This document shows, piece after piece, positions 1,966-61,113 of a stretch of 64,000 nucleotides of DNA. Made by a program: the position numbers and the translations under genes. Each line of letters starts with the position of its first letter. Position 1 is the stretch's first letter. Source of the DNA: Pseudomonadota bacterium (GTDB lineage: Bacteria > Pseudomonadota > Alphaproteobacteria > Rhizobiales > CBDHHC01); assembly GCA_039033475.1 (NCBI GenBank), contig JBCCCO010000005.1, positions 2,106 through 66,105 on the forward strand, in the 5' to 3' direction. Under the pieces are notes generated by a model that saw nothing but the letters and a program-made list of their open reading frames with translations, searched no databases and was not told where the DNA came from.

Positions 1966-2655
1966 TTATCTTTGTCCGCGTTCTCCAAAGAGGGCTGTTC
2001 CTACTCGGATATAAGTTGCGCCAAATTGAATGGCGGTTTCATAGTCTGCGCTCATGCCCATACTAAGTTCTTTCAAACCTAAGGCTGATGCTTTTTTTGC
2101 CAGTAAAGCAAAGTGGAGAGCTGGTTCTTCTTCCATGGGAGGGATACACATCAGACCTGCGATTGGCAAGCGTAAGTCGTGCTGGCAATATTCCACAAAT
2201 TCATCGAGTTGTTCGGTGGCGATGCCTGCTTTTTGCGGCTCTTCTCCGGTATTGACCTGAATAAAAAGTTTGAGCTGTTTGTCTTGGGTTTCCATTTGGT
2301 CTTTGATGGTCTTGGCAATTTTGGACCGGTCAACTGTATGGATGACATCAAAAAGGGCTACGGCCTCTTTGGTTTTGTTTGATTGTAATGGGCCAATGAG
2401 ATGCAATTCAACACCTGGGTATGTTGCTTTAAGTTGCGGCCATTTTTTTTGCGCTTCTTGTACTCGATTTTCCCCAAAGATGCGATGACCAGCTTCAAGC
2501 AGCGGCGTAATGGAGTTTTCATCTTGGGTTTTGGAGACCGCAATAAGGTTTATGTCATCTGGCGGGCGTTTTATAAGGTGGGCTGCTTGTGCAATTTTTT
2601 GTTTGATATCATGCAAACGATGTTGGTTTTTTTCTGTAGGGGGCATAAACAGCAC
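1966..2655 (-). CDS. yggS: YggS-family pyridoxal-phosphate homeostasis protein
   Basis: The ORF is 229 aa with the FGENRVQE and SMGMSxDxxxAI motifs typical of YggS/PROSC. Confidence 0.85.
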   Translation of the reverse strand: MLFMPPTEKNQHRLHDIKQKIAQAAHLIKRPPDDINLIAVSKTQDENSITPLLEAGHRIFGENRVQEAQKKWPQLKATYPGVELHLIGPLQSNKTKEAVALFDVIHTVDRSKIAKTIKDQMETQDKQLKLFIQVNTGEEPQKAGIATEQLDEFVEYCQHDLRLPIAGLMCIPPMEEEPALHFALLAKKASALGLKELSMGMSADYETAIQFGATYIRVGTALFGERGQR

Positions 2656-2802
2656 GTGTGCTTTTGTTGGATTTGCTGGTAAATGTTGAATTCTTAATGC
2701 AATTGTCTATAAGAGATAATTAGTAATTGCCACATTTTTTGTGGCTTGTTTTATAAAATAATAATCAGAACATCTGAAAGTCGGTTGATCTAGAGAATTG
2801 CT

Positions 2803-5439
2803 ATGACAAGTGAACGTTATAATGCCCCTGACCGGGAAGCCCATTGGCAAAAAGTTTGGGACAAGGAAGAAACATTTGTTGTCGATAATGCAGATGTCAT
2901 AGCAGATCAAACACATCCCAAATGTTATGTTCTTGAAATGTTTCCCTACCCTTCAGGGCGGATTCACATGGGGCATGTGCGCAACTATGCTATGGGCGAT
3001 GTGGTTGCGCGCTATAAACGGGCTAAAGGCTTTCATGTGCTGCACCCTATGGGGTGGGATGCTTTTGGAATGCCTGCTGAAAACGCTGCTATGCAACATA
3101 ATGTGCACCCGGCATCTTGGACTTATGAGAATATTGCAACGATGCGTGGGCAGCTTAAATCCATGGGGTTATCGCTTGACTGGAGCAGAGAGTTTGCAAC
3201 CTGTGATGTCGAGTATTACGAACAACAGCAACGTTTGTTTTTGGACATGCTGGATAAGGGGCTGGCTTATCGCAAAAAAAGCAAGGTGAATTGGGACCCT
3301 GTTGACCACACGGTTCTTGCAAACGAGCAAGTCATTGATGGCAAAGGATGGCGTTCTGGGGCACCCGTTGAGCAGCGAGAACTGACTCAATGGTTTTTTA
3401 AAATCACTGATTATGCCGAGGATTTGATTGAAGCCCTTGATGCACTTAAAGATTGGCCGGATGAAGTTTGTCTGATGCAGCATAACTGGATTGGGCGCTC
3501 GCATGGCCTATTAATGCGTTTTGAACTGCAAGGCGTTAACCTTCCTGATGACTTTTCAGTTTTGGAAATTTATACGACCCGGCCTGATACCATTTTTGGG
3601 GCTAGCTTTTGTGCGATTTCGCCTGAGCATCCGCTTGCCACCACTCTTGCTGAAGAGAATAAAGAGCTGGATGCGTTTATCAAAGACTGTCAGCGATTGG
3701 GCACCAGTGAAGAAGATATAGAGCGGGCTGAAAAGAAGGGGTATGATACTGGACTTGTTGCAAAGCATCCCTTTAAAGATGGTGAAGTTCTTCCTGTTTA
3801 TGTTGCTAATTTCATACTTATGGGATATGGCACTGGAGCTATTTTTGGATGTCCTGCCCATGATCAGCGCGATTTAGATTTTGCTAGGAAGTATGATCTT
3901 GATGTTACCCCTGTTGTCCTGCCTGATGGGATGGATCAGGAGTCATTTTTTGTAGATCAGGAGGCTTATACCGGTCTTGGCTCCGTTATTAACTCAGATT
4001 TTCTCAATGGTCTTGATATTCAGGACGCAAAAAATGAAATCTCCAAGCGGGCTAAAGATAAGAGAATTGGTGAGCGGCAAGTGAACTATCGCCTACGTGA
4101 TTGGGGGATTTCACGGCAACGTTATTGGGGGTGTCCGATCCCTATCATTCATTGTGATCAGTGTGGTGCCGTACCTGTACCTGATGAGGATTTACCCGTG
4201 CGATTGCCTGATGACGTTCGCTTTGATAAGCCTGGTAACCCGCTTGATCATCACCCAACTTGGAAGCATGTGGCATGTCCAAGGTGTGGAAATAAAGCGC
4301 TGCGCGAGACAGATACCTGCGATACGTTTGTTGACTCTTCATGGTATTTTGCACGGTTTTGTGCTCCTAAAGCAGAAACTCCAACAGATAAAGCGGCTGC
4401 AAATTATTGGCTTCCTGTTGATCAATATATCGGGGGTATTGAGCATGCGATTTTGCACCTGTTGTATTCACGATTTTTCACCCGGGCCATGCAAGCGACC
4501 GATCATCTTGATCTGAAAGAGCCTTTTGCCCGGCTGTTTACGCAAGGAATGGTCAATCACGAAACCTATCAATTGAATGATGGCACCTGGCTTAATCCAA
4601 ATGATGTGCGCATTGAAACTAATGGCAATGATCGTCTGGCTTGTCATATTTCAACTGGGGCACCAGTTGTGATTGGACCTGTCCGCAAGATGTCAAAATC
4701 AAAAATGAATGTGATTGATCCTGATGACATTATTGGACATTACGGTGCTGATACGGCGCGGTGGTTTATGCTTTCAGATTCCCCCCCTGAGCGTGATGTG
4801 CAATGGACAGAAGCTGGCGTTGAAGGGGCCGGGCGTTTTGTGCAACGGCTTTGGCGGCTGATTGATGAAGCGGCAGAGCTGGTTTGTCCAATTGATTCAC
4901 AAAAACCTACAAGCTTTTCTGATATGGCTTTAGATTTGCGGCGAGCTGCGCATCGTGCGCTTGATAAGACGTCTCAGGATATTGAAGCTTTACGTTTTAA
5001 TCGCGCGGTTGCCAATGTCTATGATTTTGCCAATACACTTGGTAGTGCCATTCAAGAGTGTAAGAAACACACGCAAAATTCGTCTTCCTCTGATATGAAA
5101 TGGTGTTTAAAAGAGGCCTGTGACTTTATTATTTTTATGTTTGGCCCAATGATGCCACATTTGGCTGAAGAATGTTGGATCAGACTTGATCATGGTGGTT
5201 TATTTTCTGATCAACCTTGGCCGGATGTTGAAAATTCTTTATTAAGAGATGAAACCGTGACAATAGCGGTACAGGTGAATGGAAAACGACGTGATGAGCT
5301 TACTATTTCATGCGATGCAAGCAAAGAAATGGTTGAGGCTGAAGCCTTAAAGTTGGATAATGTCGCTCGAGCCGTTGGTGAACGTCAAATAAAAAAAGTT
5401 ATTGTGGTGCCAAAAAGGATTGTAAATGTTGTTGTTTAA
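2803..5439 (+). CDS. leuS: Leucyl-tRNA synthetase
   Basis: The ORF is 878 aa with the class I motifs HMGH and KMSKS. Full-length LeuS architecture. Confidence 0.97.
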
Positions 5440-6001
5440 TTCTACGCAGAACGTTTCTTTTAAGCGGATATCTAAAGTTGTTACGATATTGGCACTTACA
5501 CTCATCGGGCCTATACTTGCAGGATGTTCTTTTCAACCGCTTTATGGCAGCAATTCACATGGTGAGAATGTTAATGAAGCTTTGAAGGCAGTTCAGATCC
5601 CCATCATACCTGGTCGTGTTGGGCAACGCGTTCGTAATGAGTTGATCTATCAAGTTACCAATGGTGGTTCACCTCTCGCTTCTAAATATCGGCTTAATTT
5701 AATTCTACGCGAATCTGAGATTGCTGCTTTGGTGACAACTTCTGGTGATTCACAGGGACAAATTTATCGTTTGGAAGCTCAATTTTCGCTTGTGCGTTTG
5801 AGTGACAACCAAGTTGTTTTTGAGGGAAAAAGTCATTCCCGTGCCGCTTACGATAAAAGCTTTTTGGATGATGCTGGCAACCAAGTGAATTCTATTTTTG
5901 GTAATGTTCGGGCGCGTATTGATGCTGAAAACAGGGCCTCACGCGTTATTGCTGAAGAATTAAAAGTTCGTCTGGCCACCTATCTCTCAACCTCTGCTTA
6001 A
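5426..6001 (+). CDS. lptE: LPS-assembly lipoprotein LptE (RlpB)
   Basis: The ORF is 191 aa with lipobox LAGC. It overlaps the leuS stop and sits in the conserved leuS-lptE-holA order. Confidence 0.75.
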
Positions 6002-6016
6002 AAGGCCTTATGCCTT

Positions 6017-7048
6017 ATGGCTGCCCTTTCCGCTGCCAAAGTACACTCTTTTGTTCAATCTCCTGATTTTTCTCTACATGCTTTTTTGATTTATGGGCAG
6101 GATCCTGGCTTGGTTCAAGAATACAGTATAGCTTTATCTCAAAAGCTGGCCCATGTCTCTCAAGATATTGGCGAAATTATTTTTCTTGATGATAATGATA
6201 TTTCCAATAATCCTGACAAACTCAGCCTTGAAATTGATATTGTTCCAATGTTTGGCGGCCAAAAGGTTGTTCGGGCGCGCACTGGTTTGCGTCTTAATGC
6301 AAGCTTATTAGAGCCTTTGATTCACAGCACAATGCAAAGCTATCTCGTTGTTGAGGCTGGTGATCTCAAAAAAAATGCCAAGCTAAGAACCCTTTTTGAA
6401 AAAAATAGTCATGCCATGGCACTTCCTTGTTACGGGGATGATAGCAAAGCTTTGCTGAGCCTTATTGATGATGAATTCTCACAAAGCAATATGACATTTG
6501 CTGTGAATGCCAAACAACATTTGCAAGATCAATTGGGTGCAGACAGGGCTTTATCTCGAGCAGAGTTAAAAAAACTTCTGTTATATGCTCATGGGCAAAA
6601 CGAAATTACGATTGAAGATATTGATGCTGTTATTGGGGATGCCGCCGCTCTTTCGTTAGAGCAGATTATTTATGCTTGCGGGCTTGGGGATATTGATGCT
6701 GCTCTTTCCCACTTTGATCGGGCATTGGATGCAGGACATTCTCCCCAAAGTGTGCTGTTTTTTTTGAATAAACATTTTACCCAACTTCATCACGTGCGTG
6801 GACAGGTCGATCGCGGAGATAGCTTGGATGTAATTGTTAGAAGACTGCGCCCTCCTGTTCACTTTAAGAGGCAAAATGACTTTAAAAGGCAGTGTTCTTC
6901 TTGGTCGCAAAAACAACTTTTTATGGCTCTTGATCTTATTACGCAAACCACCGTGCGGTGCCGTGGGAAAATGGCTTCTTATGGAAGTCTGGAGCGGATT
7001 TTTATTGAACGGTTGTTGCTAAACCTTGGCCGGATGGGGAGACGGTGA
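6017..7048 (+). CDS. holA: DNA polymerase III delta subunit
   Basis: The ORF is 343 aa. The call rests on size and on its position after lptE; motif evidence is weak. Confidence 0.75.
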   Translation: MAALSAAKVHSFVQSPDFSLHAFLIYGQDPGLVQEYSIALSQKLAHVSQDIGEIIFLDDNDISNNPDKLSLEIDIVPMFGGQKVVRARTGLRLNASLLEPLIHSTMQSYLVVEAGDLKKNAKLRTLFEKNSHAMALPCYGDDSKALLSLIDDEFSQSNMTFAVNAKQHLQDQLGADRALSRAELKKLLLYAHGQNEITIEDIDAVIGDAAALSLEQIIYACGLGDIDAALSHFDRALDAGHSPQSVLFFLNKHFTQLHHVRGQVDRGDSLDVIVRRLRPPVHFKRQNDFKRQCSSWSQKQLFMALDLITQTTVRCRGKMASYGSLERIFIERLLLNLGRMGRR

Positions 7049-7082
7049 GGGGTTTGAGTGATTGTAGTCCTTTATGGACTTT

Positions 7083-7227
7083 AGAGATTCCCGCTTTCGC
7101 GGGAATGACAATGGAGAGGTTTGGTATTAAAAATGCGCTTTTCTTAATCCTACCAGGGTTATAAGCTAAAATCTGCATTGTTTATGTGATTAACGTTACA
7201 GAGATCCTAGCTTTCGCTGGGATGACG
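7083..7227. repeat. Hairpin-repeat locus R1: A hairpin + C tail, spacer, then a second A hairpin
   Basis: AGAGATTCCCGCTTTCGCGGGAATGAC plus C occupies 7083-7160. GAGATCCTAGCTTTCGCTGGGATGACG occupies 7201-7227. Confidence 0.9.
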
Positions 7228-7245
7228 CAGCATTTAGAACTCTAA

Positions 7246-8112
7246 TTACGCCATTAACAATCGATCTCTGACAGCCTCAAGCTGTTCTAAACTGCGGTAT
7301 TTTATGCGCAATTCACCACTTTCTCCTGAGCTAGGATTGATGGTTACGCTTAAACCCAAAGCATCTGACAGCTCTTGCTCAACGGCTCTGGTATCTGCGT
7401 CTTTTTCTTTTTTGGGTTTAACCAAGCGATCTTGTTTACCCTGAATTAACGCTTCAACTTCACGGACATTGAGCCCTTTGGCCATAATCTTTTCAGCTAA
7501 TTCTTCTGCATTTTCCTGACCTATCAAAGCTCTGGCATGGCCTGCGCTAAGCTTGCTCTCACGGACCATATCCTGAACTGTCTGAGGTAGCTTTAAAAGG
7601 CGCATGGTATTGGCCAGATGGCTACGGCTTTTGCCTATAATTCTGGAGAGATCTTCTTGAGTGTATGAATATTCATCAATTAGCTCTTTGTAGCCGCCGG
7701 CTTCCTCAATGGGATTTAGATCACTGCGCTGCACGTTTTCAATAATGGCAACTTCAAGCAGTTCTTTGTCATTTAAATCACGAATAATCACTGGAAGAGT
7801 GTGCAAACCAGCAAGTTGAGATGCACGCCACCGACGTTCGCCTGCAACAATTTCATAGGTAGTGTGCAAGCCTTTGAGTGGACGGACGATAAGGGGCTGA
7901 ACAAGACCTTTTTCCGCGATGGAGGTCGCTAATTCTTCAAGCTCAGCTTGCGGGAAATCACGTCTTGGGTTCAGAGGGCTGGACTTTACATGCTCAATGG
8001 ATACCATGCGCTGTTCACCTTCCATTGGAATAGGTTGCCCTGCGTTTGCTGAATCTCCAATTAAAGCTGCCAAACCGCGTCCTAATCTTTTGTTTTGTGC
8101 CACTGCCACCAT
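7246..8112 (-). CDS. parB: Chromosome partitioning protein ParB
   Basis: The ORF is 288 aa with an LGRGLAAL N-terminus, the GERRWRA ParB box and an HTH region. Confidence 0.95.
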   Translation of the reverse strand: MVAVAQNKRLGRGLAALIGDSANAGQPIPMEGEQRMVSIEHVKSSPLNPRRDFPQAELEELATSIAEKGLVQPLIVRPLKGLHTTYEIVAGERRWRASQLAGLHTLPVIIRDLNDKELLEVAIIENVQRSDLNPIEEAGGYKELIDEYSYTQEDLSRIIGKSRSHLANTMRLLKLPQTVQDMVRESKLSAGHARALIGQENAEELAEKIMAKGLNVREVEALIQGKQDRLVKPKKEKDADTRAVEQELSDALGLSVTINPSSGESGELRIKYRSLEQLEAVRDRLLMA

Positions 8113-8175
8113 CTTTTGTTTTTCCTTATATTAAACTTTAAGCGTTTCTTGCTGCTTAATATGTGTTTTGATTTT

Positions 8176-9009
8176 TTAAGCAGCGCCCAGAAGGTTTTCA
8201 CGGTCAATAATTTCGCTTGCTAACCTGATATAAGCTTTACTGCCAACGCATTTGTGATCATATAAAAGGATTGGCTTACCATGGGATGGTGCTTCAGCAA
8301 TACGAACATTCCTTGGTATTTCTGTTGCATAGACTTTTTCACCAAAGAAATTCCGAACTTCACTGGCCACTTCATCGGCCAGTTTGGTACGTGAATCATG
8401 CATAGTCAGCACAACACCATGAATTTCCAAATCTGGATTTAAGCTGGCTTTGACATAGTCAATACTCTCCGCCAATTGTTGAATTCCTTCAAGCGCGAAA
8501 AATTCGCATTGCACGGGCACCAGGACTGAATCTGCTGCACTCATCGCATTGATCGTGAGAATATTAAGAGAGGGTGGGCAATCAATCAGAACGTAATTGA
8601 TGCGTTTGTCCTCAGGCATTTCAGAGTCTATTGCTTTCATATTCATAATTGCATCGCGAAGACGAAATGCTCTGTTCGATGAGGCGTTGAGTTCTGGCTC
8701 AAGGCCTGCCAAATCCCGTGTGGCCGGGGCCACTGCAAGATTTGGAATTTTTGAGGGAATTGCCGCTTGATGCAGTGTTGCGGTGCGGCTCATCACATCA
8801 TATATCGAGATGGTGCGGGATTGCTCATCTATTCCAAGGCCTGTGCTGGCATTGCCTTGAGGATCCAAATCAATCACAAGAACGCGCTGATCTACGGCTG
8901 CAAGAGCAGTGCCCAGGTTAATAGCGGTCGTGGTTTTCCCAACACCGCCTTTTTGGTTGGCTACAGCTAAAACGCGAGGGCCTGAATTTCCATATATTTT
9001 TCCAGTCAT
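8176..9009 (-). CDS. parA: Chromosome partitioning ATPase ParA
   Basis: The ORF is 277 aa with the deviant Walker A motif KGGVGKTT. Confidence 0.95.
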   Translation of the reverse strand: MTGKIYGNSGPRVLAVANQKGGVGKTTTAINLGTALAAVDQRVLVIDLDPQGNASTGLGIDEQSRTISIYDVMSRTATLHQAAIPSKIPNLAVAPATRDLAGLEPELNASSNRAFRLRDAIMNMKAIDSEMPEDKRINYVLIDCPPSLNILTINAMSAADSVLVPVQCEFFALEGIQQLAESIDYVKASLNPDLEIHGVVLTMHDSRTKLADEVASEVRNFFGEKVYATEIPRNVRIAEAPSHGKPILLYDHKCVGSKAYIRLASEIIDRENLLGAA

Positions 9010-9064
9010 GGTGTATCTCCTTTACCGGGATTCTGTTTTACTGGATATACATTTGTTATTTTTA
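9006..9064 (-). pseudogene. Relict 3' end of rsmG (KITNVYPVKQNPGKGDTP-stop), displaced by the 250-bp insertion
   Basis: This stretch reads in frame with rsmG once 9065-9314 is removed. Its TGA stop overlaps the parA ATG (ATGA at 9006-9009). Confidence 0.6.
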
Positions 9065-9314
9065 CTGCAATTTGGGATAGGAAAAAAATGAAAAAATACC
9101 CTAGCCACCCTGCCAGGTATGAGCCAGATCGGTGATTTGTGAAAAAAATCACTGTGTGGCCGAAAAATAGTTCTTTGACCGGGATTCCATTTTTCAATGC
9201 AAGACCGGTATAACCTGTTTGAGATTCCCGCTTTCGCGGGAATGACGGTGGAGAGTTTTGTTTTTTAAAATGCACTTTTCTTATCCATAACCGGGGCTAC
9301 ATTTGTTATTTTTA
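9065..9314. mobile_element. 250-bp insertion or duplication bounded by a 17-bp perfect direct repeat, carrying an A+C hairpin-repeat unit
   Basis: TACATTTGTTATTTTTA occurs at 9048-9064 and again at 9298-9314. The interior contains GAGATTCCCGCTTTCGCGGGAATGAC plus a C tail (9221-9297). Confidence 0.55.
9221..9297. repeat. Hairpin-repeat locus R2: A hairpin + C tail (inside the rsmG/parA insertion)
   Basis: GAGATTCCCGCTTTCGCGGGAATGACGGTGGAGAGTTTTG...CTTTTCTTATCCATAACCGGGG. Confidence 0.9.
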
Positions 9315-9990
9315 TTATTGTGCCTGCTGTTTCTGTCATGCTGAGGCAATCTTCATACTCAAAACGCCAGATTTTCTTAGCGTTTTGTATTTCTTTTTCC
9401 GTGTCCCGTCCTTTTAAAAAGACAAGTTCGGTGTTTTGTTGCAAAAATGGATGCGTGAGTCCTAACAGTTTGTCCAATGAAGCAAGCGCTCTTGCTGTCA
9501 CGCAATCAATAGACATATGTTGCGCTGACTCGTGCAAAGTTTCAATTCGGCAATTGTGAATTTCCACAAATGCGATGGAATTGGTGTGTGATTTTGAGCT
9601 CAGATCAAGCTTGCGAGCCACTTCTTGCAAAAAAGCACATTTTTTGGTGTTGCTTTCGACAAGGTGAAGTGCTGTGTTTTGAAATGATTTAGTCGCGGCC
9701 TGACTGTCTTGCATTAAAATTGCCAGGACCAGAGCCGGAAATCCAGCGCCAGAACCGATATCCACTAAATTTTTCGTACTTTTTGGAATATGCTGCAAAA
9801 GTTGCGCGCTATCTGCGAAATGGCGATGCCAGATGTCATTGATTGTGCTGTTTGCGATGAGATTTTTAGATTTTTGCCATAGCTTTAGGAGTGCTTCATA
9901 TTGCTCCAATTTTTCAATCGTTTCACGTGAAACTCCAAAGGCTTGAGCAAAATCTATTGCATTTTGAATATGGCGGATTTGATCAGGCAA
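9265..9990 (-). CDS. rsmG: 16S rRNA (guanine527-N7)-methyltransferase RsmG (GidB); the current 3' end is supplied by repeat sequence
   Basis: The ORF is 241 aa with SAM motif DIGSGAGFP. The last 11 codons ([10 protein letters not shown]-stop) lie inside repeat module C. Confidence 0.9.
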
Positions 9991-11911
9991 TGGTGCTGCT
10001 CTGGACTGTTTTGGTCGTTTTGTTTTTTGCGTTCTTGATATTTTTTACATGGGCCAAAATCAATGTTAATGCCGATGGGGTCATGCCTTCAAGACGCGAG
10101 GCCTGGCTTAAAGTTACAGGGCGATGGTGGGCTAATTTCTGTCGCAGCTCATTGGAAAGCCCTGAAATGGTCTGGTAGTTAAAATCTTTCGGGATCTTAA
10201 TGCCTTCATCTTTTTGGACTGCTCGAATGTCTTGCTCCTGACGCTTTAAGTACACCGCATATTTTGCGTCAATTGCTAATTGCTCTGCAATATTGGGCTG
10301 AATTTGCTCTAATTCCGGCCAAATCTGCGTGACCCTTCCCCATGTTATATCAGGAAACGACAATAAATCGAAAGCACTGCGGCGTTTGCCATCTTGATTT
10401 ATTTTCAGGCCCTTTTGGCCGGCTTGCTGAGGGGTAATATTGAAAGCGTTCAGTTTTACAGTGCCTGCATGCAATGCTTTTTCTTTTGCTGTAAAGAGAT
10501 CTGCTCTTTGTTTGCTTACGCACCCGATTTTTATGCCAAGTGGCGTTAAGCGTTGGTCGGCGTTATCTGCTCGCAGTTTCAGGCGATATTCTGCCCTTGA
10601 TGTAAACATGCGGTAAGGCTCAATTACGCCGCGCGTTACCAAATCATCTATCATCACACCTATATAGCTTTCGGTGCGGCTGAGAATAACACTTTGAGGT
10701 GTCCCCGAAGATGTGATGTTTGAGGCTTTCAATGCTGCATTGAGACCGGCTATAAGCCCTTGCCCCGCCGCTTCTTCATAGCCTGTCGTGCCGTTAATCT
10801 GGCCTGCTAGGAATAAGCCGTTTAGGACTTTTGTCTCCAATGTCGGGTAAAGCTCGCGAGGATCAACGTAATCGTATTCTATGGCATAGCCTGGCTGAAT
10901 TACGCGGGCTTTTTCAAGACCTGGAATTGTCTTAAGAAACGCATGTTGCACCTCTTCAGGGAGAGAGGTGGAAATGCCATTGGGGTAAACGGTGTCATCA
11001 TCAAGGCCTTCTGGCTCTAAAAAGATTTGATGGCTTTCTCGTTCTTTGAATCTGACGATTTTATCCTCGATGGAAGGGCAGTACCTAGGGCCAATGCTGT
11101 CGATCTGGCCTGAATACATCGGCGATTTTTTTAAATTGTTTTCAATCACAGAATGGGTTTGTGTATTGGTGTGGGTAATATAGCAGTTTACTTGCGGGTT
11201 TGTGATTGCTTCAGTTAAGGCTGAAAAGGGAATGGGCGGGGTATCTCCCGCTTGAGGTTTTAAACGATCCCATGCAATGGTTTTGCCGTCAAGGCGTGGG
11301 GGAGTGCCGGTTTTTAGGCGGCCCATGCGCAAATTCAAGCTGTATAGCCGATCAGATAATCCTATCGCTGGGGCTTCACCAATGCGGCCCGCTTGGATTT
11401 TTTTCTCACCAATATGGATTAGCCCCTTGAGAAACGTGCCTGTTGTGAGTACGACAGCGCCTACTTTGTAATATGTGCCTTGTGCTGTAATCACCCCAGT
11501 AATCTGGTTGTTTTCAACTTTAAGGTCTTCAACAGCTGCGGAAATCACGGTTAGATTGGGGATTTGTGCGATAGCGGTTTGCATGGCCTCGCGGTAGCGC
11601 TTGCGATCTGCTTGTGCTCTTGGGCCTTGGACTGCTGGACCTCTTGAGCGATTGAGAACACGGAATTGGATGCCCCCTTGATCTGCAACGCGGCCCATTA
11701 ATCCATCAAGAGCATCGATTTCGCGAACCAGATGGCCTTTGCCTAAGCCTCCGATGGCTGGATTACAGGACATTTCTCCGATGGTTTGAGCTTTATGTGT
11801 GATCAGTGCTGTTTGTGCACCCATGCGCGCGGCTGCACTCGCAGCTTCACAGCCGGCATGGCCACCTCCGATAACGATAACATCGAATGTCTTTTGTGTG
11901 TTGGTTTTCAT
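9983..11911 (-). CDS. mnmG: tRNA uridine 5-carboxymethylaminomethyl modification enzyme MnmG (GidA)
   Basis: FAD motif [12 protein letters not shown]. The start is taken at MKTNTQ (11911) rather than the ORF-track start at 11971. Confidence 0.95.
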
Positions 11912-12172
11912 GGAAATGGATATAGCAAGAATGAACGAAAAGTTAAAGATTGTTTCATGTGAAACAAACACATTAACAAATACTTTCGAAGACTCTGAAA
12001 TGATTCAGAAAGATTCGAGATAGACTCAAAACGACTCTAAATATGATGTTCTAGACTCATTTTTTACTGAAGTGACTTTTAGAGTTATTGGGGGAAAAGG
12101 AAGAGTAATGTTTGTGATTAGTGATTTTTTTTCCTGGTAAAATTCGATGGATGTTTAAAGCACTACTTTTGC

Positions 12173-12309
12173 GCCATACTTGCGAAAGCTGGGATCTTAA
12201 CAAAAAAACTCAGCGAGATCCCAGCTTTCGCTGGGATGACGGAGTGTGTTTCGTGGGAATGACGAACTGAAAGTATCTTAGAATATATAAACCATTCTAA
12301 ATTAGATCC
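12173..12309. repeat. Hairpin-repeat locus R3: degenerate inverted A, A hairpin, half-A + D tail
   Basis: GAGATCCCAGCTTTCGCTGGGATGAC lies at 12215-12240. GGGAATGACGAACTGAAAGTATCTTAGAATATATAAACCATTCTAAATTAGATC runs to 12309. Confidence 0.85.
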
Positions 12310-12316
12310 GCTATAC

Positions 12317-13744
12317 TCATTTGCCAATGCAGAATGAGCTGAAAATCTCGCCAAGTATGTCTTCCACATCAATGCGACCGGTGATACGGCCGATGGCATT
12401 GGCGGCGATGCGCAAATGCTCAACCTGTAATTCAAGCGGCAACTCTTGTGCATTTAAAAATGACTTCAGGGACTCTTTACAAATTTCAAGATGCTCGCGG
12501 TGGCGCGCGCGGGTGATCAGGAGCGCATCTTGTGTTCCAAGAGTGGTTTGTACATGCTGTGAAATATGATCAATCAGATGATTCACACCAAACCCTGTTT
12601 TGGCCGAAATTAATAATGCGTTTTCTACTATGTCTTCGGGATCGCGTTTTTGTAGGTTTTGCTGCACAGTCTTGATGTCTTCTGATGAAAATTGATCAAC
12701 TTTATTGAGTACCAAGCACGTTACAGGTTTGCTTTGTGCAATGCTCTCACTGTCTTGATTTAAGATATGCTCTAGCTCTTTAACAAAAGAGGGGGCGTTG
12801 TTCGTGCTATTACTCACTTGCGCTATATCTTCACACCAGAGGACCAGATTGGCATTTGAGATATAAGATTGCGCGCGGCGGATGCCTTCTTGTTCTATTT
12901 TGTTATGCGCCTCACGAATTCCAGCTGTGTCTGTTATTATTACCGCATATCCGTTGAGATTTAGGTGTACTTCAATGGCATCTCTTGTGGTACCAGCTTC
13001 TTCAGAGACAATTGCAGCTTGCCTTTGGGATAGCACATTCAACAGGGTGGATTTGCCGGCGTTTGGTGGTCCAGCAATGACAATACGAAAGCCATCACGC
13101 ATGATTTCTCCACGGTGATTGTCTTGCAAATGCTCTTTTATTGACTTGTTGGACTCTTTAATCTGTTGATAGGCTTGACTTGCCACGCTTTGCGGAACAT
13201 CTTCTTCATCGGAAAAGTCTAATTCTGCTTCAATATAAGCTAATCCTGTTATTATCGTATTGCGCCAGCTTTCATATAATATTCCTAACGCCCCTGTTGA
13301 TTGTTGCAATGCTTGGCGTCGCTGGCTTTCGGTTTGAGCATTGATTAGATCTGCCAGCCCTTCGATTTGGGTTAAATCCATTTTGCCGTTTAGAAATGCG
13401 CGGCGGGAAAACTCTCCTGGTTCTGCCAACCGCAAGCCTTGACAGCAGCTTAGCGCCTCTAAGACACTCTCAATTACAGCTTTGCCACCGTGAATGTGAA
13501 ATTCGCACACGTGTTCTCCGGTAAAACTGCTCGGGGCCGGAAAGCTTATCACAAGGGCATGGTCAAGGTGCTCCCTTGTTATGGGATGGGTTAGGGTGCG
13601 AAGGCTCGCCTGCCGTGGCCTAGGTGTTGTGCCCGCTATTTCATTAAGTGTGCGCTCAACACCCGGCCCTGAGATACGGATGATAGCAACGCCTGCCCGG
13701 CCTGGCGCTGTTGAAAGGGCATATATGGTCTCTTGATCTGACAT
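12317..13744 (-). CDS. mnmE: tRNA modification GTPase MnmE (TrmE/ThdF)
   Basis: The ORF is 475 aa with G1 motif GPPNAGKST and the characteristic C-terminal FCIGK. Confidence 0.95.
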   Translation of the reverse strand: MSDQETIYALSTAPGRAGVAIIRISGPGVERTLNEIAGTTPRPRQASLRTLTHPITREHLDHALVISFPAPSSFTGEHVCEFHIHGGKAVIESVLEALSCCQGLRLAEPGEFSRRAFLNGKMDLTQIEGLADLINAQTESQRRQALQQSTGALGILYESWRNTIITGLAYIEAELDFSDEEDVPQSVASQAYQQIKESNKSIKEHLQDNHRGEIMRDGFRIVIAGPPNAGKSTLLNVLSQRQAAIVSEEAGTTRDAIEVHLNLNGYAVIITDTAGIREAHNKIEQEGIRRAQSYISNANLVLWCEDIAQVSNSTNNAPSFVKELEHILNQDSESIAQSKPVTCLVLNKVDQFSSEDIKTVQQNLQKRDPEDIVENALLISAKTGFGVNHLIDHISQHVQTTLGTQDALLITRARHREHLEICKESLKSFLNAQELPLELQVEHLRIAANAIGRITGRIDVEDILGEIFSSFCIGK

Positions 13745-13824: not shown

Positions 13825-13896
13825 ATGTTGTTTTAAAATAAGATAATTGTAACTTACCTGGAAAATAAAGATATAAAATTATGCTATGTCCACATA

Positions 13897-13923
13897 GGTC
13901 CCCGCTTTCGCGGGAATGAAGGC
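13897..13923. repeat. Hairpin-repeat locus R4b: solo A hairpin
   Basis: GGTCCCCGCTTTCGCGGGAATGAAGG lies immediately upstream of the thioredoxin-domain ORF. Confidence 0.8.
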
Positions 13924-13926
13924 GAT

Positions 13927-16068
13927 GTGGATCTTTATTTCACTTTTGTAGCGTTAGGAATATCCCTCGTGTCATCAAACCATCTTCAATACGAAACCAG
14001 CCCTTATTTGTTGCAACATAAAGATAACCCTGTTCATTGGTGGGCTTGGGGGACTGATGCGCTGGCCGAAGCGCGGCGACTGCATAAACCGATCCTGCTT
14101 TCTGTTGGTTATGCGGCCTGTCATTGGTGCCATGTTATGGCGCACGAAAGTTTTGAGGATGAAGCAACGGCGGCGCTGATGAATAATCTCTTTGTTAATA
14201 TCAAAGTTGATAGGGAAGAGCGTCCTGATATTGATGCACTTTATATGGATGCACTGCACATGATGGGAGAGCAGGGAGGCTGGCCGCTTACGATGTTTTT
14301 GACGCCCAAAGGTGAGCCGTTTTGGGGTGGCACGTATTTTCCGAAAAAACCGAGCTATGGTCGTCCTTCATTTCAAACAATTTTGAAAGAAATTGCTCGG
14401 ATATACAAGGAGGAGCCTAAAACAGTTTTAAACAACAGTGACGTTATTACCAAACATCTCAAACAGCATTCTTCGTTTCTAGTTAACTCCGCTGACGATG
14501 GAGACTCTGTCATATTAAATAGCTCTCAACTTCGAGAATTTGCAAATAAGCTTTACGATATCGTTGACCTAAAATGGGGTGGTACTCAGGGCGCGCCTAA
14601 ATTTCCTCAAGTTGGTTTGTTCGAATTTTTATGGCGTAAGGGGTTACACCTCAATAATACTGACTTTCAGGGCTCTGTGCGTTTAAGTTTGCGCAACATG
14701 TGCCAAGGTGGGATTTATGATCATCTTGGTGGCGGGTTTGCACGGTACTCTGTCGATGATAAATGGCTAGTGCCGCATTTTGAAAAAATGCTCTATGACA
14801 ATGCATTGTTGCTAGATTTGATGTGCGAAGTATCGCGCGAGACAGAAGACCCTTTGTTAAAACAAAGAATTTTTGAAACAGCGGAATGGGTGTTGCGAGA
14901 GATGATTGCTGAGGGGGGTGGGTTTGCTGCTTCCCTTGATGCAGACTCAGAAGGTGTTGAAGGTAAGTTCTATGTCTGGGACCGTGATGAGGTGATTGCT
15001 GTTCTCCGTGATAGGGGTATGGGGGATATGGTTGAGCCTTTTTGTAAGATTTATGATGTTCAAGAAAACGGGAATTGGGATGGGAAAACTATTTTAAATC
15101 GGCTGGAGGCAATCGATTATTTTGGGGAGGATGGTGCTATGGAGGGTGGGGAGGATATGGAGATGGACCTCCAGAAGTGTCGAAACATCCTCCTGAATGC
15201 CAGGACTCACAGGATAAGACCTTCCTGGGATGATAAAGTATTGTCCGACTGGAATGGTTTGATGATCACTTCCCTCGCAAAAGCAGGAGAGATTTTTGCT
15301 CAGACACATTGGATTGCAGCAAGCATTACAGCGTTTGATTTCGTTGTTACGCAGATGATGGAAGTCGGGCGGCTTTATCATAGCTACCGAGCAGGGCAAG
15401 CTAAAGTGTCTGCCATCTCATCTGATTATGCGAATATGATTGGTGCGGCGCTCTGTCTTTATCAGATTACGACAGAAGAAAAATATCTCGACTATGCCAA
15501 GGATTGGGCAGATATTTTGGACCAGTATTATTGGGATCACGATGAAGGAGGATATTTCCTCATTGCGCAGGATACGAATGATGTTCTTATTCGACAAAAG
15601 TCTGCACGGGACGATGCCACGCCGAGCGCCAATGGAGTTATGGTGTCAGAATTATCGAAGCTGTTCGTCTTAACTGGAGAGATGTCTTATAAGGATCGTG
15701 CTGAGAAATTGGCGCAGGTTTTTTCATCATCTGCTGGCGACAATTTGTTTGCTCATACAAAATTCTTTTCTGGAATATTGGATTTGTCGTCATTGATTCA
15801 CGTGGTTATTTCAGGTCAAAATAAAGAAGGAAGAGATGCATTTGTGAAAGCGTTTTATGATGTCTCACTTCCAGGCGCTGTTTTGCAAGTTGTCCCTGAT
15901 GCTTCTGTTTTGCCAGAGCATTCCCCTGCTAAGCCAAAGGCCATCACATCGGATGGTGTTGTTGCTTATATTTGTGTTGGAGCATTGTGCCTTGAGCCCG
16001 CAACAGATTTGGCTGATTTTAGAGGGAGGCTGTTGTTAGCTCGGGGAGATAGGTTAACAAACATTTAA
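13927..16068 (+). CDS. Thioredoxin-domain protein of the YyaL/DUF255 family (thioredoxin fold plus six-hairpin glycosidase-like domain)
   Basis: SPYLLQH..NPVHWW and CHWCHVM motifs. The true start may be the GTG at 13969. Confidence 0.8.
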   Translation: MDLYFTFVALGISLVSSNHLQYETSPYLLQHKDNPVHWWAWGTDALAEARRLHKPILLSVGYAACHWCHVMAHESFEDEATAALMNNLFVNIKVDREERPDIDALYMDALHMMGEQGGWPLTMFLTPKGEPFWGGTYFPKKPSYGRPSFQTILKEIARIYKEEPKTVLNNSDVITKHLKQHSSFLVNSADDGDSVILNSSQLREFANKLYDIVDLKWGGTQGAPKFPQVGLFEFLWRKGLHLNNTDFQGSVRLSLRNMCQGGIYDHLGGGFARYSVDDKWLVPHFEKMLYDNALLLDLMCEVSRETEDPLLKQRIFETAEWVLREMIAEGGGFAASLDADSEGVEGKFYVWDRDEVIAVLRDRGMGDMVEPFCKIYDVQENGNWDGKTILNRLEAIDYFGEDGAMEGGEDMEMDLQKCRNILLNARTHRIRPSWDDKVLSDWNGLMITSLAKAGEIFAQTHWIAASITAFDFVVTQMMEVGRLYHSYRAGQAKVSAISSDYANMIGAALCLYQITTEEKYLDYAKDWADILDQYYWDHDEGGYFLIAQDTNDVLIRQKSARDDATPSANGVMVSELSKLFVLTGEMSYKDRAEKLAQVFSSSAGDNLFAHTKFFSGILDLSSLIHVVISGQNKEGRDAFVKAFYDVSLPGAVLQVVPDASVLPEHSPAKPKAITSDGVVAYICVGALCLEPATDLADFRGRLLLARGDRLTNI

Positions 16069-35917: not shown

Positions 35918-35920
35918 GAT

Positions 35921-36075
35921 AACCTTAAGTAGGATTAGGGAAATTGCATTTTATATATCAAAACGTGCCACCGTCATTCCCGCGCAAGCGGGAATCTCGG
36001 AAAAGTTGCAATGAGATCCCAGCTTTCGCTGGGATGACGAGGTATTTCATATTTTTCTCATCCATAACTGGGCTT
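35921..36075. repeat. Hairpin-repeat locus R8 between hisA and hisF: inverted C + inverted A, spacer, A + C (overall palindromic doublet)
   Basis: GTCATTCCCGCGCAAGCGGGAATCTC lies at 35973-35998. GAGATCCCAGCTTTCGCTGGGATGACG lies at 36013-36039. Confidence 0.9.
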
Positions 36076-42127: not shown

Positions 42128-42204
42128 GTTGATGTCTAACCCGATTTAGAAGATATTTTAAAAGGTATGTTGTTCTATGAAAATTCATAAAACAAAAGCC
42201 CCTC

Positions 42205-42355
42205 ATCATCCCGGCCAAGTGCATGCAATGCACGTGAGCAAAGGATCTCTGAAACGTAAAACTATTGATAACCAAAGAGATTCCAGCTTTCGCTGGAATG
42301 ACGGTGGCGCGTTTTGGTGTTTAAAATATACTTTTTCTTATTCATAATTGGGATT
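42205..42355. repeat. Hairpin-repeat locus R10: B extended hairpin, spacer, A hairpin, C tail
   Basis: ATCATCCCGGCCAAGTGCATGCAATGCACGTGAGCAAAGGATCTCTG ... AGAGATTCCAGCTTTCGCTGGAATGAC ... GGTGTTTAAAATATACTTTTTCTTATTCATAATTGGGATT. Confidence 0.9.
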
Positions 42356-42785
42356 ACCCTAGAGCGTTGCGTAGTTTTGTTGCGTGCTCAGCTAAGATGT
42401 CTTGTTCAGCCATTATGCCTGGGGGGCGAAGCTCTACACCTTCTTGTCTTGGTAAAATATGAAAATGGAGATGAAACACTTCTTGGCCTGATGCGGCCTC
42501 ATTAAATTGCTGAATAAGAAGGCCTTGTGCTGCAAAAACTGTTATTGCGGCTTTGCCAATTGTTTTTACAGTCTGAATAACAGCTGTTAAATCGTCTGGA
42601 TTAATATCTAATATGTTACGGCATGGGGCTTTGGGAATAACCAGGGTATGGCCATCGCTGCGTGGCATAATATCCATAAAGGCGAGCACTTTATCTGTTT
42701 CATAAACATTATGACAGGGGATTTCGCCGCGCAGTATTTTTGCAAAGATATTGTCATTCTCATATGTTGCTGTCTTTTCAGTCAT
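42354..42785 (-). CDS. HIT family hydrolase
   Basis: Histidine triad HLHFHILP. The start is taken at MTEKTATYEND (42785), which overlaps the upstream stop by 8 nt. Confidence 0.9.
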   Translation of the reverse strand: MTEKTATYENDNIFAKILRGEIPCHNVYETDKVLAFMDIMPRSDGHTLVIPKAPCRNILDINPDDLTAVIQTVKTIGKAAITVFAAQGLLIQQFNEAASGQEVFHLHFHILPRQEGVELRPPGIMAEQDILAEHATKLRNALG

Positions 42786-44022
42786 TTTTATTGGTCCTTT
42801 GGCAGGTTGTGCTGACATCTGGTTTTTGTGCGTAAGGCGTATGGGTGGAGAGAATATTGTTTTCAAAAGCAATGTGGTCTTTTTCATGTTCAAGATATCT
42901 TGCAATCACATGACGTAACTCTGGGTTGGTAATATAGTGTGTGCTGTATGTTAGTGTTGGCACGTAGCCTCTTGCCAATTTGTGCGCGCCTTGAGCGCCC
43001 GCCTCTACTCGAGATAGGCCGTTTTGAATCGCAAAGTCAATAGCTTGATAGTAACACGCTTCAAAATGCAAAAATTTGTGGTCTTCAATGGCTCCCCAGT
43101 TGCGGCCATACAGCGTATCACCACCGATAAAATTTAAGGCACCTGCAATAATCTTATCACCACGATGACAGAGTATGAGCAAAATTTGATCTCTCATTGT
43201 TTCATTAATATGTGAAAAGAACTCTCTGGTCAAATAAGCCTGGCCCCATTTTCGTGATGAGGTGTCGAGATAAAATTCGTAAAAATGGTCCCAATGGTTT
43301 TCTTGTAAATCTGAGCCGGTGAGCCATTTGATGGTGATGTTATTGTTTTGTGCTTCACGGCGTTCTTTGCGAATGGTTTTACGTTTGCGTGACGAGAGGG
43401 TTGCTAAAAACTCATCGAAGGTTTTGTAAGCATTGTTGTGCCAATGAAATTGTTGACTGTGTCTGGTTAAAAATCCCATCTCTGACATGATAGTATGTTC
43501 TTGTTCATTCAAAAATGTGCAGTGAAATGAGGATATATCAAGTTTTTCAACAAGTTGTATAGCTGCTGCAGCGAGGCTTTTTTGATGTTTCTTTTGATTT
43601 GGGTTTGCTGGGGTGAGTAGCCGTGGTCCAGTTGCCGGGGTAAACGGTATAGCGCATTGTAATTTGGGGTAGTATTGTTTATGCAAGCGCATGTAAAGTT
43701 CTGCCCAGGCGTGGTCAAAAATATATTCGCCATAGCTGTGGGATTTGATGTAACATGGCATTACGCCAAGGATGGTATCTTGATTATTTTCTTCAGAATT
43801 TTGCATGGCCGTATCTTCTGCTGATAGCGCGAGGTGACAAGGCATCCAGCCGGTTTTTTTGCATACGGATTTTGATTTTTCTAAGGCGTTTAAAAAGTGG
43901 TAGGAGACAAAGGGGTTATAGGTTTTAGGATTTGGGTTGGCACATGCATTCCAGCTTTTGGCACTTAATTCTGCAATGCTGCTGACAGAGCGGACGAAAT
44001 GTTTTGTTGGTGGTGAAGCCAT
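42778..44022 (-). CDS. DUF482 / FemAB-like (BioF2-like) N-acetyltransferase-fold protein
   Basis: The ORF is 414 aa with a COG3146-like pattern (FLNALE.S, GGDTLYGRNWG, EAGAQG.HK..RG). Confidence 0.7.
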   Translation of the reverse strand: MASPPTKHFVRSVSSIAELSAKSWNACANPNPKTYNPFVSYHFLNALEKSKSVCKKTGWMPCHLALSAEDTAMQNSEENNQDTILGVMPCYIKSHSYGEYIFDHAWAELYMRLHKQYYPKLQCAIPFTPATGPRLLTPANPNQKKHQKSLAAAAIQLVEKLDISSFHCTFLNEQEHTIMSEMGFLTRHSQQFHWHNNAYKTFDEFLATLSSRKRKTIRKERREAQNNNITIKWLTGSDLQENHWDHFYEFYLDTSSRKWGQAYLTREFFSHINETMRDQILLILCHRGDKIIAGALNFIGGDTLYGRNWGAIEDHKFLHFEACYYQAIDFAIQNGLSRVEAGAQGAHKLARGYVPTLTYSTHYITNPELRHVIARYLEHEKDHIAFENNILSTHTPYAQKPDVSTTCQRTNKND

Positions 44023-46040: not shown

Positions 46041-46072
46041 GATGAGCTCTTGTTTTAAGCTGCTTTTTTAAA

Positions 46073-46250
46073 CCTTAGTGGATTTAAGAAAAAAGACGAA
46101 ATACCCTTGTCATCCGCGAGAAAGCGGAGATTTCCTTTTTCAAGGTAACACCTTAATCAATTACTCACAGATTCCAGCTTTTGCTGGAATGACAGTGGAG
46201 AGTTTGGGTGTTGAGAATGCAATTTCCTTAATCTTATTGGATTTTTACGT
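46073..46250. repeat. Hairpin-repeat locus R12: inverted C, inverted A variant, spacer, A hairpin, C tail; overlaps the 3' end of the PAP2 ORF
   Basis: GTCATCCGCGAGAAAGCGGAGATTTCC lies at 46109-46135. CAGATTCCAGCTTTTGCTGGAATGAC lies at 46168-46193. Confidence 0.85.
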
Positions 46251-47032
46251 TTTAGAAGCAATTGCAGTCTTGCTTTTGTATATCTTATTACACGGTTTAG
46301 CTGGATATGAATAGGGCCTTTGTGGGCGAATGTGGTTGCATATCTTACAAAGACCAGCCAATGCAAGGCAGATACAACCAAAGCCATAATAATACCGGAA
46401 AACAGAACGTCGCTTAGAAAGTGTCCGCCTTGTAAGATACGCACTGCACCTGATGCCATTCCGGCTAAGATGCCGTAAAAAATTAGGTTTTGGGCGTGCA
46501 GTGGAAATATTAATGCGAGTGCAAAAAAGCCAACAAAAATCATGGCGGCTTCACCGCTGATAAATGAACAATTTCTTTGGCATTGATCTGAGACTTGCAT
46601 AACAGGTGTGAATTTTTGCTGGCCGTCAAATTGTTGGATGTAGTGAGGTCTGGCTCTGCCCCAATTGTCTTTGAGAAGTGTATTGGCGACAAGGCCAGGG
46701 CCGATGATGAGGCATAGCGTTAAGAACATCCATTTAGGGAAGGTTAAATTGAAAACAGAGTTTTTACTGTGTGTACAGATGTACAGACTAATGAGAACGC
46801 CAATGCAAAGGGTTGTGAAAAACAGTTGGAACAAGAAGCGTAAGATGGGGCCGATTTGCCAGATATCGAATAAGAACGTACGTTGGCCATGATAAAAGAG
46901 GGCGGATACAGCAATGTCAAGATTGGGAAAACTGACAAAAATAAATGCGCATGCAAGCCCTGTAGCGCACGCCAGATTGATGAGTTTTTGACGTACAGTA
47001 TGCTGTTTTGCCAATGCCTGGTTATGTTGCAT
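46157..47032 (-). CDS. PAP2-family membrane phosphatase (LpxE/LpxF-like); the C-terminal tail is encoded by repeat sequence
   Basis: The ORF is 291 aa and multi-TM, with the PAP2 motifs SFISGEA and GGHFLSDV. Its last 31 codons or so (46157-46250) lie inside repeat locus R12. Confidence 0.75.
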   Translation of the reverse strand: MQHNQALAKQHTVRQKLINLACATGLACAFIFVSFPNLDIAVSALFYHGQRTFLFDIWQIGPILRFLFQLFFTTLCIGVLISLYICTHSKNSVFNLTFPKWMFLTLCLIIGPGLVANTLLKDNWGRARPHYIQQFDGQQKFTPVMQVSDQCQRNCSFISGEAAMIFVGFFALALIFPLHAQNLIFYGILAGMASGAVRILQGGHFLSDVLFSGIIMALVVSALHWLVFVRYATTFAHKGPIHIQLNRVIRYTKARLQLLLKRKNPIRLRKLHSQHPNSPLSFQQKLESVSN

Positions 47033-60943: not shown

Positions 60944-61113
60944 AACCCCAGTAGGATCAAGAAAGTTGTATTTTAAACACCAAAACGCGCCACCGTCATC
61001 CCGGCCAAGCGCATATAAAGCGCGCTAGCCGGGATCTCTGGAACTTTCAACATACTGATATTTAAGAGATTCCCGCTTTCGCGGGAATGACGGTGGATAG
61101 TTTTATGCTTTCG
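60944..61113. repeat. Hairpin-repeat locus R13: inverted C, B extended hairpin, spacer, A hairpin, truncated C
   Basis: GTCATCCCGGCCAAGCGCATATAAAGCGCGCTAGCCGGGATCTCTGG lies at 60995-61041. AGAGATTCCCGCTTTCGCGGGAATGAC lies at 61065-61091. Confidence 0.9.

Follow-up and report, generated by a model that had tools for sequence, protein, structure and literature searches.

Insertion of a modular hairpin element as the probable origin of the present rsmG 3' end in an alphaproteobacterial rsmG-parA junction

The 3' end of the rsmG gene was analysed in a 64-kb window, i.e. the whole 64,000-nucleotide stretch (positions 2,106 to 66,105) of contig JBCCCO010000005.1, from an alphaproteobacterial metagenome-assembled genome (MAG) of the Rhizobiales. 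In this window rsmG ends inside a small hairpin-bearing element whose relatives are dispersed over the same DNA, and in all probability a family element inserted into the rsmG 3' end with duplication of its target. A full-length, 233-bp copy of the non-coding family would have entered the last rsmG codons, just past those for the final beta-strand, and repair of a staggered break would have duplicated 17 bp of the target (12-17 bp if the start of the repeat is the end of the element). Translation of RsmG would then pass from the KITNV codons, now duplicated, to the element's right arm, where it acquires 10 new residues before an element-borne TAA. The old 13-codon tail, which spans the parA ribosome-binding site and ends in a TGA over the parA ATG, would have been stranded as non-coding DNA, so that rsmG and parA, formerly overlapping, would have come to lie 255 bp apart. 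An earlier note on this DNA had proposed that a 250-bp insertion displaced the rsmG 3' end; the proposal holds, as the insert consists entirely of family sequence, is accompanied by a 17-bp duplication and is absent from the closest relatives.

The direct repeat, the insert and the two rsmG tails

The direct repeat TACATTTGTTATTTTTA was found only at 9048-9064 and 9298-9314 when the 64 kb were searched with up to two mismatches allowed, and two matches to it occurred in none of 100 shuffled sequences. It is the longest exact direct repeat of the window at 60-600 bp spacing; in Markov nulls (n = 30) the longest direct repeat was 12-16 bp. The rsmG-proximal copy (9298-9314, minus strand) codes for K227-V231 (KITNV), the core of the last RsmG beta-strand. 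The parA-proximal copy (9048-9064, minus strand) is now non-coding and encodes KITNV in what we call the ghost frame, the frame in which rsmG would have ended before the insertion. That the sequence occurs twice, 250 bp apart, and encodes KITNV on the minus strand both times had been pointed out in the earlier note, and was confirmed by reading the sequence as well as by the pattern search. Beyond the 17 bp, only AC.GG agrees in the next 8 nt and the remainder is at background level (by reading).

An offset of 250 bp is 3n+1, and the rsmG frame and the ghost frame consequently differ by one. The open reading frame (ORF) at 9275-9006 on the minus strand ends with KITNV-YPVKQNPGKGDTP-TGA, of which YPVKQNPGKGDTP and the TGA (9006-9047, minus strand) would be the ghost tail of the pre-insertion gene; its TGA overlaps the parA ATG (ATGA, 9009-9006), just as had been described. 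In silico removal of 9065-9314, i.e. of the element and one repeat, gave a single 244-aa ORF that ends at the ghost TGA, in agreement with the earlier statement that this deletion restores a continuous rsmG. The reconstructed empty site would read ...KITNVYPVKQNPGKGDTP followed by the stop. The sequence facts given in the earlier note were thus all borne out.

To judge from its sequence, the 233-bp insert (9065-9297, no strand assigned) is one complete, full-length element of the modular hairpin family, because each part of it can be placed in the family and the parts come in the same order as in the copy at 46062-46248; the 17-bp repeat adjoins both ends. The left arm, of 'type 2' (GGATAGGAAAAAAATGAAAAAATACCCTAGCCACCC, 9075-9110, plus strand), finds homologous sequence in the left arm of that copy (p = 0.001; p < 0.004 in a separate comparison) and in the right arm of the copy at 35918-36075, the latter read in reverse complement (p = 0.0025). 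The central segment (9111-9178, no strand) is specific to this copy; it contains an A+T-rich hairpin, GTGATTT/AAATCAC, at 9132-9152 and occupies the position of the left hairpin of other copies, the rsmG copy having one canonical hairpin and one degenerate, interrupted hairpin. There follow a middle module, CGGGATTCCATTTTTCAATGCAAGACC (9179-9206, plus strand), homologous to the module of the copy at 46062-46248 (p < 0.0005), and the core hairpin GAGATTCCCGCTTTCGCGGGAATGACGG (9221-9248, no strand), in which 9224-9243 fits ATTCCC-N8-GGGAAT. The right arm, of 'type 1', gives RsmG residues 232-241 and the TAA stop (9265-9267) from the minus strand of its outer part (9249-9297, plus strand). An imperfect terminal inverted repeat, GGATAGGAAAA/GGATAAGAAAA, is mirror-placed 10-11 nt inside the direct repeats (p = 0.012), and the two element ends, with the end sequence TAATCCCAGTAGGATTAAGAAAAG, pair with each other in the predicted RNA fold. 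The 89-aa ORF that comprises the ghost frame and the element, the only open frame of the insert, had no homolog among 5.8 billion proteins, and no Rfam family matched the element.

The last 10 codons of the present rsmG and its stop lie within the right arm, which at 9220-9301 is the window's top match to a hidden Markov model (HMM) of the arms (E = 8e-24); the earlier assignment of the last rsmG codons to the repeat family is thereby upheld. The tail MDKKSAF is arm translation, and a non-coding arm copy at 7082-7163 gives IKKSAF in the same frame (ORF 7002-7178). In an AlphaFold2 model of RsmG (mean predicted local distance difference test score 89.6) the last beta-strand comprises residues 224-233, and residues 234-241 form a coil of falling confidence; relatives in the PDB align up to about residue 205. 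The model thus places the insertion point at the very end of the RsmG fold, and because of this position the swap of a 13-residue for a 10-residue tail is likely to be tolerated by the protein.

Tails of 120 RsmG homologs extend 2-20 residues (median 6) past the last conserved hydrophobic residue, with Pro at +2 in 56 of them. An xPV tail start was present in 10 of the 120, one of which is the window's own RsmG (APV); near relatives end in HPV, QPV or RPV followed by the stop. Both the ghost tail (YPV...) and the element-encoded tail (APV...) fit the xPV pattern, so that the comparison of tails does not discriminate between them. The earlier note had proposed to look for the ghost C-terminus YPVKQNPGKGDTP in orthologous RsmG proteins, and the outcome was weakly favourable: the xPV start recurs, but the full ghost tail was absent from the orthologs among the 120 homologs compared.

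The rsmG-parA junction in relatives and in the operon

The gene order mnmE-mnmG-rsmG-parA-parB is conserved in alphaproteobacteria and is identical in the relatives represented by contigs L002 and L003. In the window all five genes are on the minus strand: mnmE (12317-13744), mnmG (9983-11911), the present form of rsmG (gidB; 9265-9990, 241 aa, PF02527), parA (8176-9009, 277 aa, PF01656/PF13614, with a start, MTGKIYG, that is kept in relatives) and parB (7246-8112, ParB domains). The closest RsmG relative in the protein collection is 58% identical, and the top ParA matches, 91% identical, are those of contigs L002 and L004. The rsmG stop and the parA ATG are separated by 255 nt in the window vs 66 nt in L002, 81 nt in L004 and 17 nt in L003 (ParA 79% identical), and none of these three contigs carries repeat-family sequence. 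A comparison with relatives had been recommended in the earlier note as a way to find an empty site, and these short, element-free spacers are what it yielded. Once the element and one repeat are removed, 38 nt remain between the conserved V codon and the parA ATG, compared with 29-108 nt in relatives. Because the nearest relatives have short spacers without the element, the insertion is specific to the window's lineage.

The earlier note had also claimed that the insertion broke the coupling of rsmG and parA, which is an over-reading: the restored ATGA overlap is real, but an overlap of rsmG stop and parA start is absent from L002, L003 and L004, and the parA ribosome-binding site is intact in the window. 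Coupling by overlap is thus not a conserved feature. The relatives also have ATGA at the parA start, because ParA begins with Met-Thr. The parA Shine-Dalgarno sequence AAGGAGAT (9015-9022, minus strand), 5 nt upstream of the ATG and inside the ghost codons for GKGD, is conserved in relatives, with AAGGAGA(T/A) 5-7 nt upstream of the ATG. Given relatives without the overlap, an ATGA that follows from the Met-Thr start and a ribosome-binding site that is kept, any loss of translational coupling between rsmG and parA was probably minor. As the new tail lies outside the RsmG fold and parA keeps its own ribosome-binding site, the effect of the insertion would have been nearly neutral.

Other features of the insert could bear on parA expression. 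A terminator-like stem-loop of about -11 kcal/mol occupies 9100-9128 on the minus strand, with GUAUUUUUUCAUUUUUUU (9099-9082) after it on that strand, at a distance of 90 nt upstream of parA for transcription that comes from rsmG; one such site was observed vs 0.6 expected in shuffles, which makes it weak evidence. The core hairpin (9221-9248) has no T-run after it on the minus strand, and no sigma-70-like promoter directed toward parA was detected in the insert. A role of the ORF from the GTG at 9275 to the TGA at 9006 as a relay delivering ribosomes to parA was considered and is unsupported: its openness has p = 0.06 (0.17 for any of three frames), and it has neither a good ribosome-binding site nor homologs. 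It was also observed that L002 carries a hairpin of another type, CTCGCAATGACG...CGTCATTGCGAG (3887-3924), in its 275-bp parA-parB spacer, and that this hairpin shares an ...AATGACG flank with the hairpins of the window.

Transposition weighed against other origins

Classically, a target-site duplication is recognised by a unique perfect repeat on both sides of a complete element that has inverted ends, and we infer that the repeat arose in this way, by transposition. Several features of the insert are those of a MITE (miniature inverted-repeat transposable element), namely its size (233 bp, typical sizes being about 100-400 bp) with no transposase gene inside, its imperfect terminal inverted repeats and the dispersal of copies (about 15 loci in 64 kb).

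A number of observations weigh against this interpretation. A duplication of 17 bp is long compared with the 2-13 bp typical of insertion sequences (ISs) and MITEs (PMC2266710, PMC5896051). None of the 13 other copies examined in the window is flanked by direct repeats above chance, a negative answer to the question, raised in the earlier note, of whether other copies are flanked by duplications; duplication of the target, let alone of 17 bp, may not be a trait of the family. The 50 larger ORFs of the window, all housekeeping, include no transposase or phage gene, and so no parent IS. About 68 bp of the insert (9111-9178) have no second copy in the window. The exact insertion junctions are ambiguous within the direct repeat, and the start of the 17-mer resembles element sequence, as seen at the element end (...GGGGC TACAT) and in two other copies (...GGGATTACATA, ...GGGCTTCATA); the first repeat bases (TACAT) might thus be element sequence, which would give a duplication of 12 bp instead of 17. 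The outgroups are distant (RsmG 48-57% identical) and no true empty site was found among them. No near-identical source copy of the insert is known; the insertion may be recent, as the earlier note had it and as the perfect 17/17 repeat would fit. Finally, the right junction (9251-9419) is provided by the NCBI MAG contig, a single assembly.

The same insert might have been placed by illegitimate or microhomology-mediated recombination, or by break repair, for example with another locus or imported DNA as the template; repair would then have left the 17-bp repeat as a by-product. Such an origin, which we consider unlikely, is what would be expected for repeats akin to repetitive extragenic palindromic (REP) sequences or to neisserial intergenic mosaic elements (NIMEs), normally found without target duplications, and it would agree with the lack of flanking repeats at all 13 other copies and of a transposase in the 64 kb. 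The core hairpin moreover fits the dRS3 pattern, and recombination is the presumed route by which NIMEs spread (PMC1797815). It would account less well for inverted-repeat arms and clean ends that abut the repeat, as in a transposed MITE, and older duplications at other copies could have decayed. A weak likeness of the ghost tail (TACTGGATA, TACCGGGATT) to the element terminus (TACTGGGATTA) would also suit repair but is not significant (p = 0.05-0.8). The ghost tail was likewise considered as a remnant of an older element end, or as a target whose similarity guided the insertion, and both ideas were rejected since the alignments are not significant.

Two further explanations would remove the insertion itself. 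It is very improbable that the MAG contig was mis-joined inside a repeated hairpin, the repeat copies then not being truly 250 bp apart. Run SRR22824269 yields two Logan contigs identical to the window at 2176-9250 and 9420-12241, which independently confirms the left junction and most of the element; these same-run contigs end within the hairpin at 9250 and again at 9420, outside it, leaving 9251-9419 without independent cover. Against a mis-join, rsmG is directly upstream of parA in all relatives, the 17-bp repeat is shorter than assembler k-mers, and the same 17-mer on both sides together with an architecture collinear with the copy at 46062-46248 would be hard to obtain from a chimeric join. 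Still harder to credit is an ancestral origin of the 255-bp spacer and of today's RsmG tail, in which case repeat and ghost frame would reflect coincidence or a small local duplication unrelated to the element. The ghost tail is indeed found in no ortholog, a stop-free frame across the element is not unusual (p = 0.06) and the ATGA of relatives has a trivial cause; but far fewer than one exact 17-bp repeat would be expected in the window at spacings of up to 600 bp, the two copies enclose precisely one element, the spacers of relatives are short and element-free, and the present tail is arm sequence. Insertion of a family element with target duplication is therefore the origin that we retain as most probable.

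The exact RsmG sequence is known from one NCBI MAG only ('Pseudomonadota bacterium', MEM7619100.1). The Logan contigs (L001/L245) end at 9250 and 12241, both inside repeat-family hairpins; a third contig end, at 9420, lies within unique rsmG sequence without visible reason, and low coverage or polymorphism near the insertion could be its cause.

The hairpin family and its place among known repeats

The modular repeat family, with GAGATTCCCGCTTTCGCGGGAATGAC as the hairpin at its core, occupies about 15 loci in the 64 kb. A full-length copy comprises a pair of long inverted arms, a short middle module and either one or two hairpins; clear inverted arms are seen, for instance, in the copy at 61063. 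The arms are of two subtypes: in the rsmG copy and in 46062-46248 the left arm is type 2 and the right arm type 1, and in 35918-36075 it is the other way round. For 14 of the 15 copies a gene 3' end is found at a distance of 0-41 nt, with an overlap in three cases, and 11 of 15 are between co-directional genes.

Several individual copies touch genes of the window. A PAP2-family gene (46157-47032, minus strand) runs 92 nt into the right arm and hairpin of the element 46062-46248, from which it takes about 29 C-terminal codons and its stop (...NPIRLRKLHSQHPNSPLSFQQKLESVSN, then the stop), a second such case in the window; no flanking repeat is detectable there. The TAA stop (42354-42356) of a HIT-family gene (42354-42905, minus strand) is the terminal TTA of the element 42145-42358 (...GGGATTA), which adjoins or supplies this stop codon. 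The hisA-hisF junction is filled by a complete 158-bp element (35918-36075), 1 nt past the hisA stop and 11 nt before the hisF ATG; this other within-operon insertion has a right end, ...ATCCATAACTGGGC, that scarcely differs from the right end of the rsmG copy. A family hairpin at 13894-13936 overlaps the predicted GTG start (13927) of a gene with DUF255/thioredoxin domains, whose true start is probably further downstream. Stop-free frames cross whole elements at 9006-9275 (89 aa) and 7002-7178 (58 aa), both on the minus strand, with the peptides SFPRKRES and IPAKAGIS; the two ORFs will probably be annotated, wrongly, as hypothetical proteins.

The hairpin core is widespread outside this genome. 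ATTCCC-N8-GGGAAT has seven sites in the window (9224-9243 and six others) vs 0.14 expected. The exact 23-mer ATTCCCGCTTTCGCGGGAATGAC was found in at least 120 metagenome contigs with G+C contents of 0.30-0.72 and otherwise unrelated flanks, and in 112 IMG/VR contigs. The metagenome hairpin consensus is CTGGATTCCCGCTTTCGCGGGAATGAC (27 nt), from contigs of soil, marine and sludge origin. The core is thus identical across very different genomes. None of the 120 metagenome contigs with the exact 23-nt hairpin shares the element arms, which on this comparison are private to the window's genome. A search of 596 Gb of genome contigs with the arm pattern AAAATGCNCTTTTCTTA, whose 16 specified bases are too few for that volume of sequence, returned 120 chance matches in unrelated phyla, none with an arm. 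An IMG/VR contig (L306, 2071-2431) carries a hairpin array with a 77-bp period (4.8 copies, 93% matches, flank GACGGTGGCGGGGG); this array resembles the NIME type, and the 28-mer GATTCCCGCTTTCGCGGGAATGACGGTGG is identical in the arms of the window.

Among described repeats, QMITE1 and QMITE2 of Coxiella burnetii are, compared by description, the same sort of element: small and non-coding, with inverted-repeat ends and stable hairpins, present in tens of copies and often over gene 3' ends, their short copies being REP-like and without visible flanking repeats. They differ in flanking repeats of 2-4 bp or 7-9 bp vs 17 bp here, and in their gammaproteobacterial host. QMITE2 gives the C-terminal 33 residues and stop region of EnhC in Coxiella Dugway (Wachter et al., 2018; PMC5896051), and QMITE1 and QMITE2 overlap the 3' ends of ubiB, pntAA, mutT, recN, ruvB and other genes (PMC5896051). 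The outcome at rsmG matches such a QMITE-type C-terminal replacement.

Rickettsia palindromic elements (RPEs), to which the earlier note had likened the outcome, are also palindromic repeats of an intracellular-type alphaproteobacterium that lie inside coding sequence and add residues. RPEs are not known to be accompanied by target duplications. The analogy fails in that RPEs keep the frame on insertion and leave the host ORF running on past them (PMC10969869), whereas the rsmG insert is 3n+1, shifts the frame and stops after 10 codons, the old tail being out of frame and lost; the result is a C-terminal replacement. Precedents for duplications longer than one helical turn exist in IS1634 and IS1549, with target duplications of 8-514 bp (De Palmenaer et al., 2008; PMC2266710), but these are full insertion sequences with a transposase.

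REP sequences and bacterial interspersed mosaic elements share with the window's family their extragenic G+C-rich hairpins, compensatory stem variants, location mostly just past genes and lack of flanking duplications. REP sequences have a head, GTAG or GGAG; the window hairpins are flanked by GAGAT.../...ATGAC, and the rsmG copy differs from REPs by its long arms and flanking repeat. No match to a REP-associated tyrosine transposase (RAYT; Y1 transposase, PF01797-type) was found in the ORFs of the 64 kb.

The likeness to Neisseria dRS3/NIME sequences lies in the core hairpin ATTCCCGCTTTCGCGGGAAT, which fits ATTCCC-N8-GGGAAT (PMC1797815), and in a construction from modules of 40-120 bp placed between hairpins. 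Elements stand singly in the window, not in long arrays, and its groupings of dRS3-like hairpins are small (7084/7201; 38847/38888). NIMEs are described as Neisseria-specific, and Correia elements duplicate TA (Bentley et al., 2007; PMC1797815); no gene for an IS110/Piv-type recombinase was found in the window. The identity of the 27-nt hairpin in contigs of 30-72% G+C might point to a shared recognition factor. A dRS3/NIME-like system with a common recognition factor might thus operate beyond Neisseria, the rsmG copy being a cut-and-fill footprint with a 17-bp stagger; we regard this combined idea as rather improbable. If true, cut-and-fill with a 17-bp stagger would be a mechanism undescribed for REP- or NIME-type repeats.

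In conclusion, the event at rsmG belongs to a known kind, of which it is a clean, ordinary instance, with probably small effects on RsmG and on parAB expression. Nothing in it exceeds the textbook cases except the unusual 17-bp duplication, and the wide distribution of the hairpin core adds to the value of the example. In annotation, the 'hypothetical' ORF 9006-9275 should be recognised as an artefact of the element, and likewise the tail of RsmG. The locus provides a before-and-after record of a small repeat remodelling a housekeeping operon, in which the new and the abandoned protein ends are both readable, and such footprints help to explain the spread of hairpin families that normally leave no trace.

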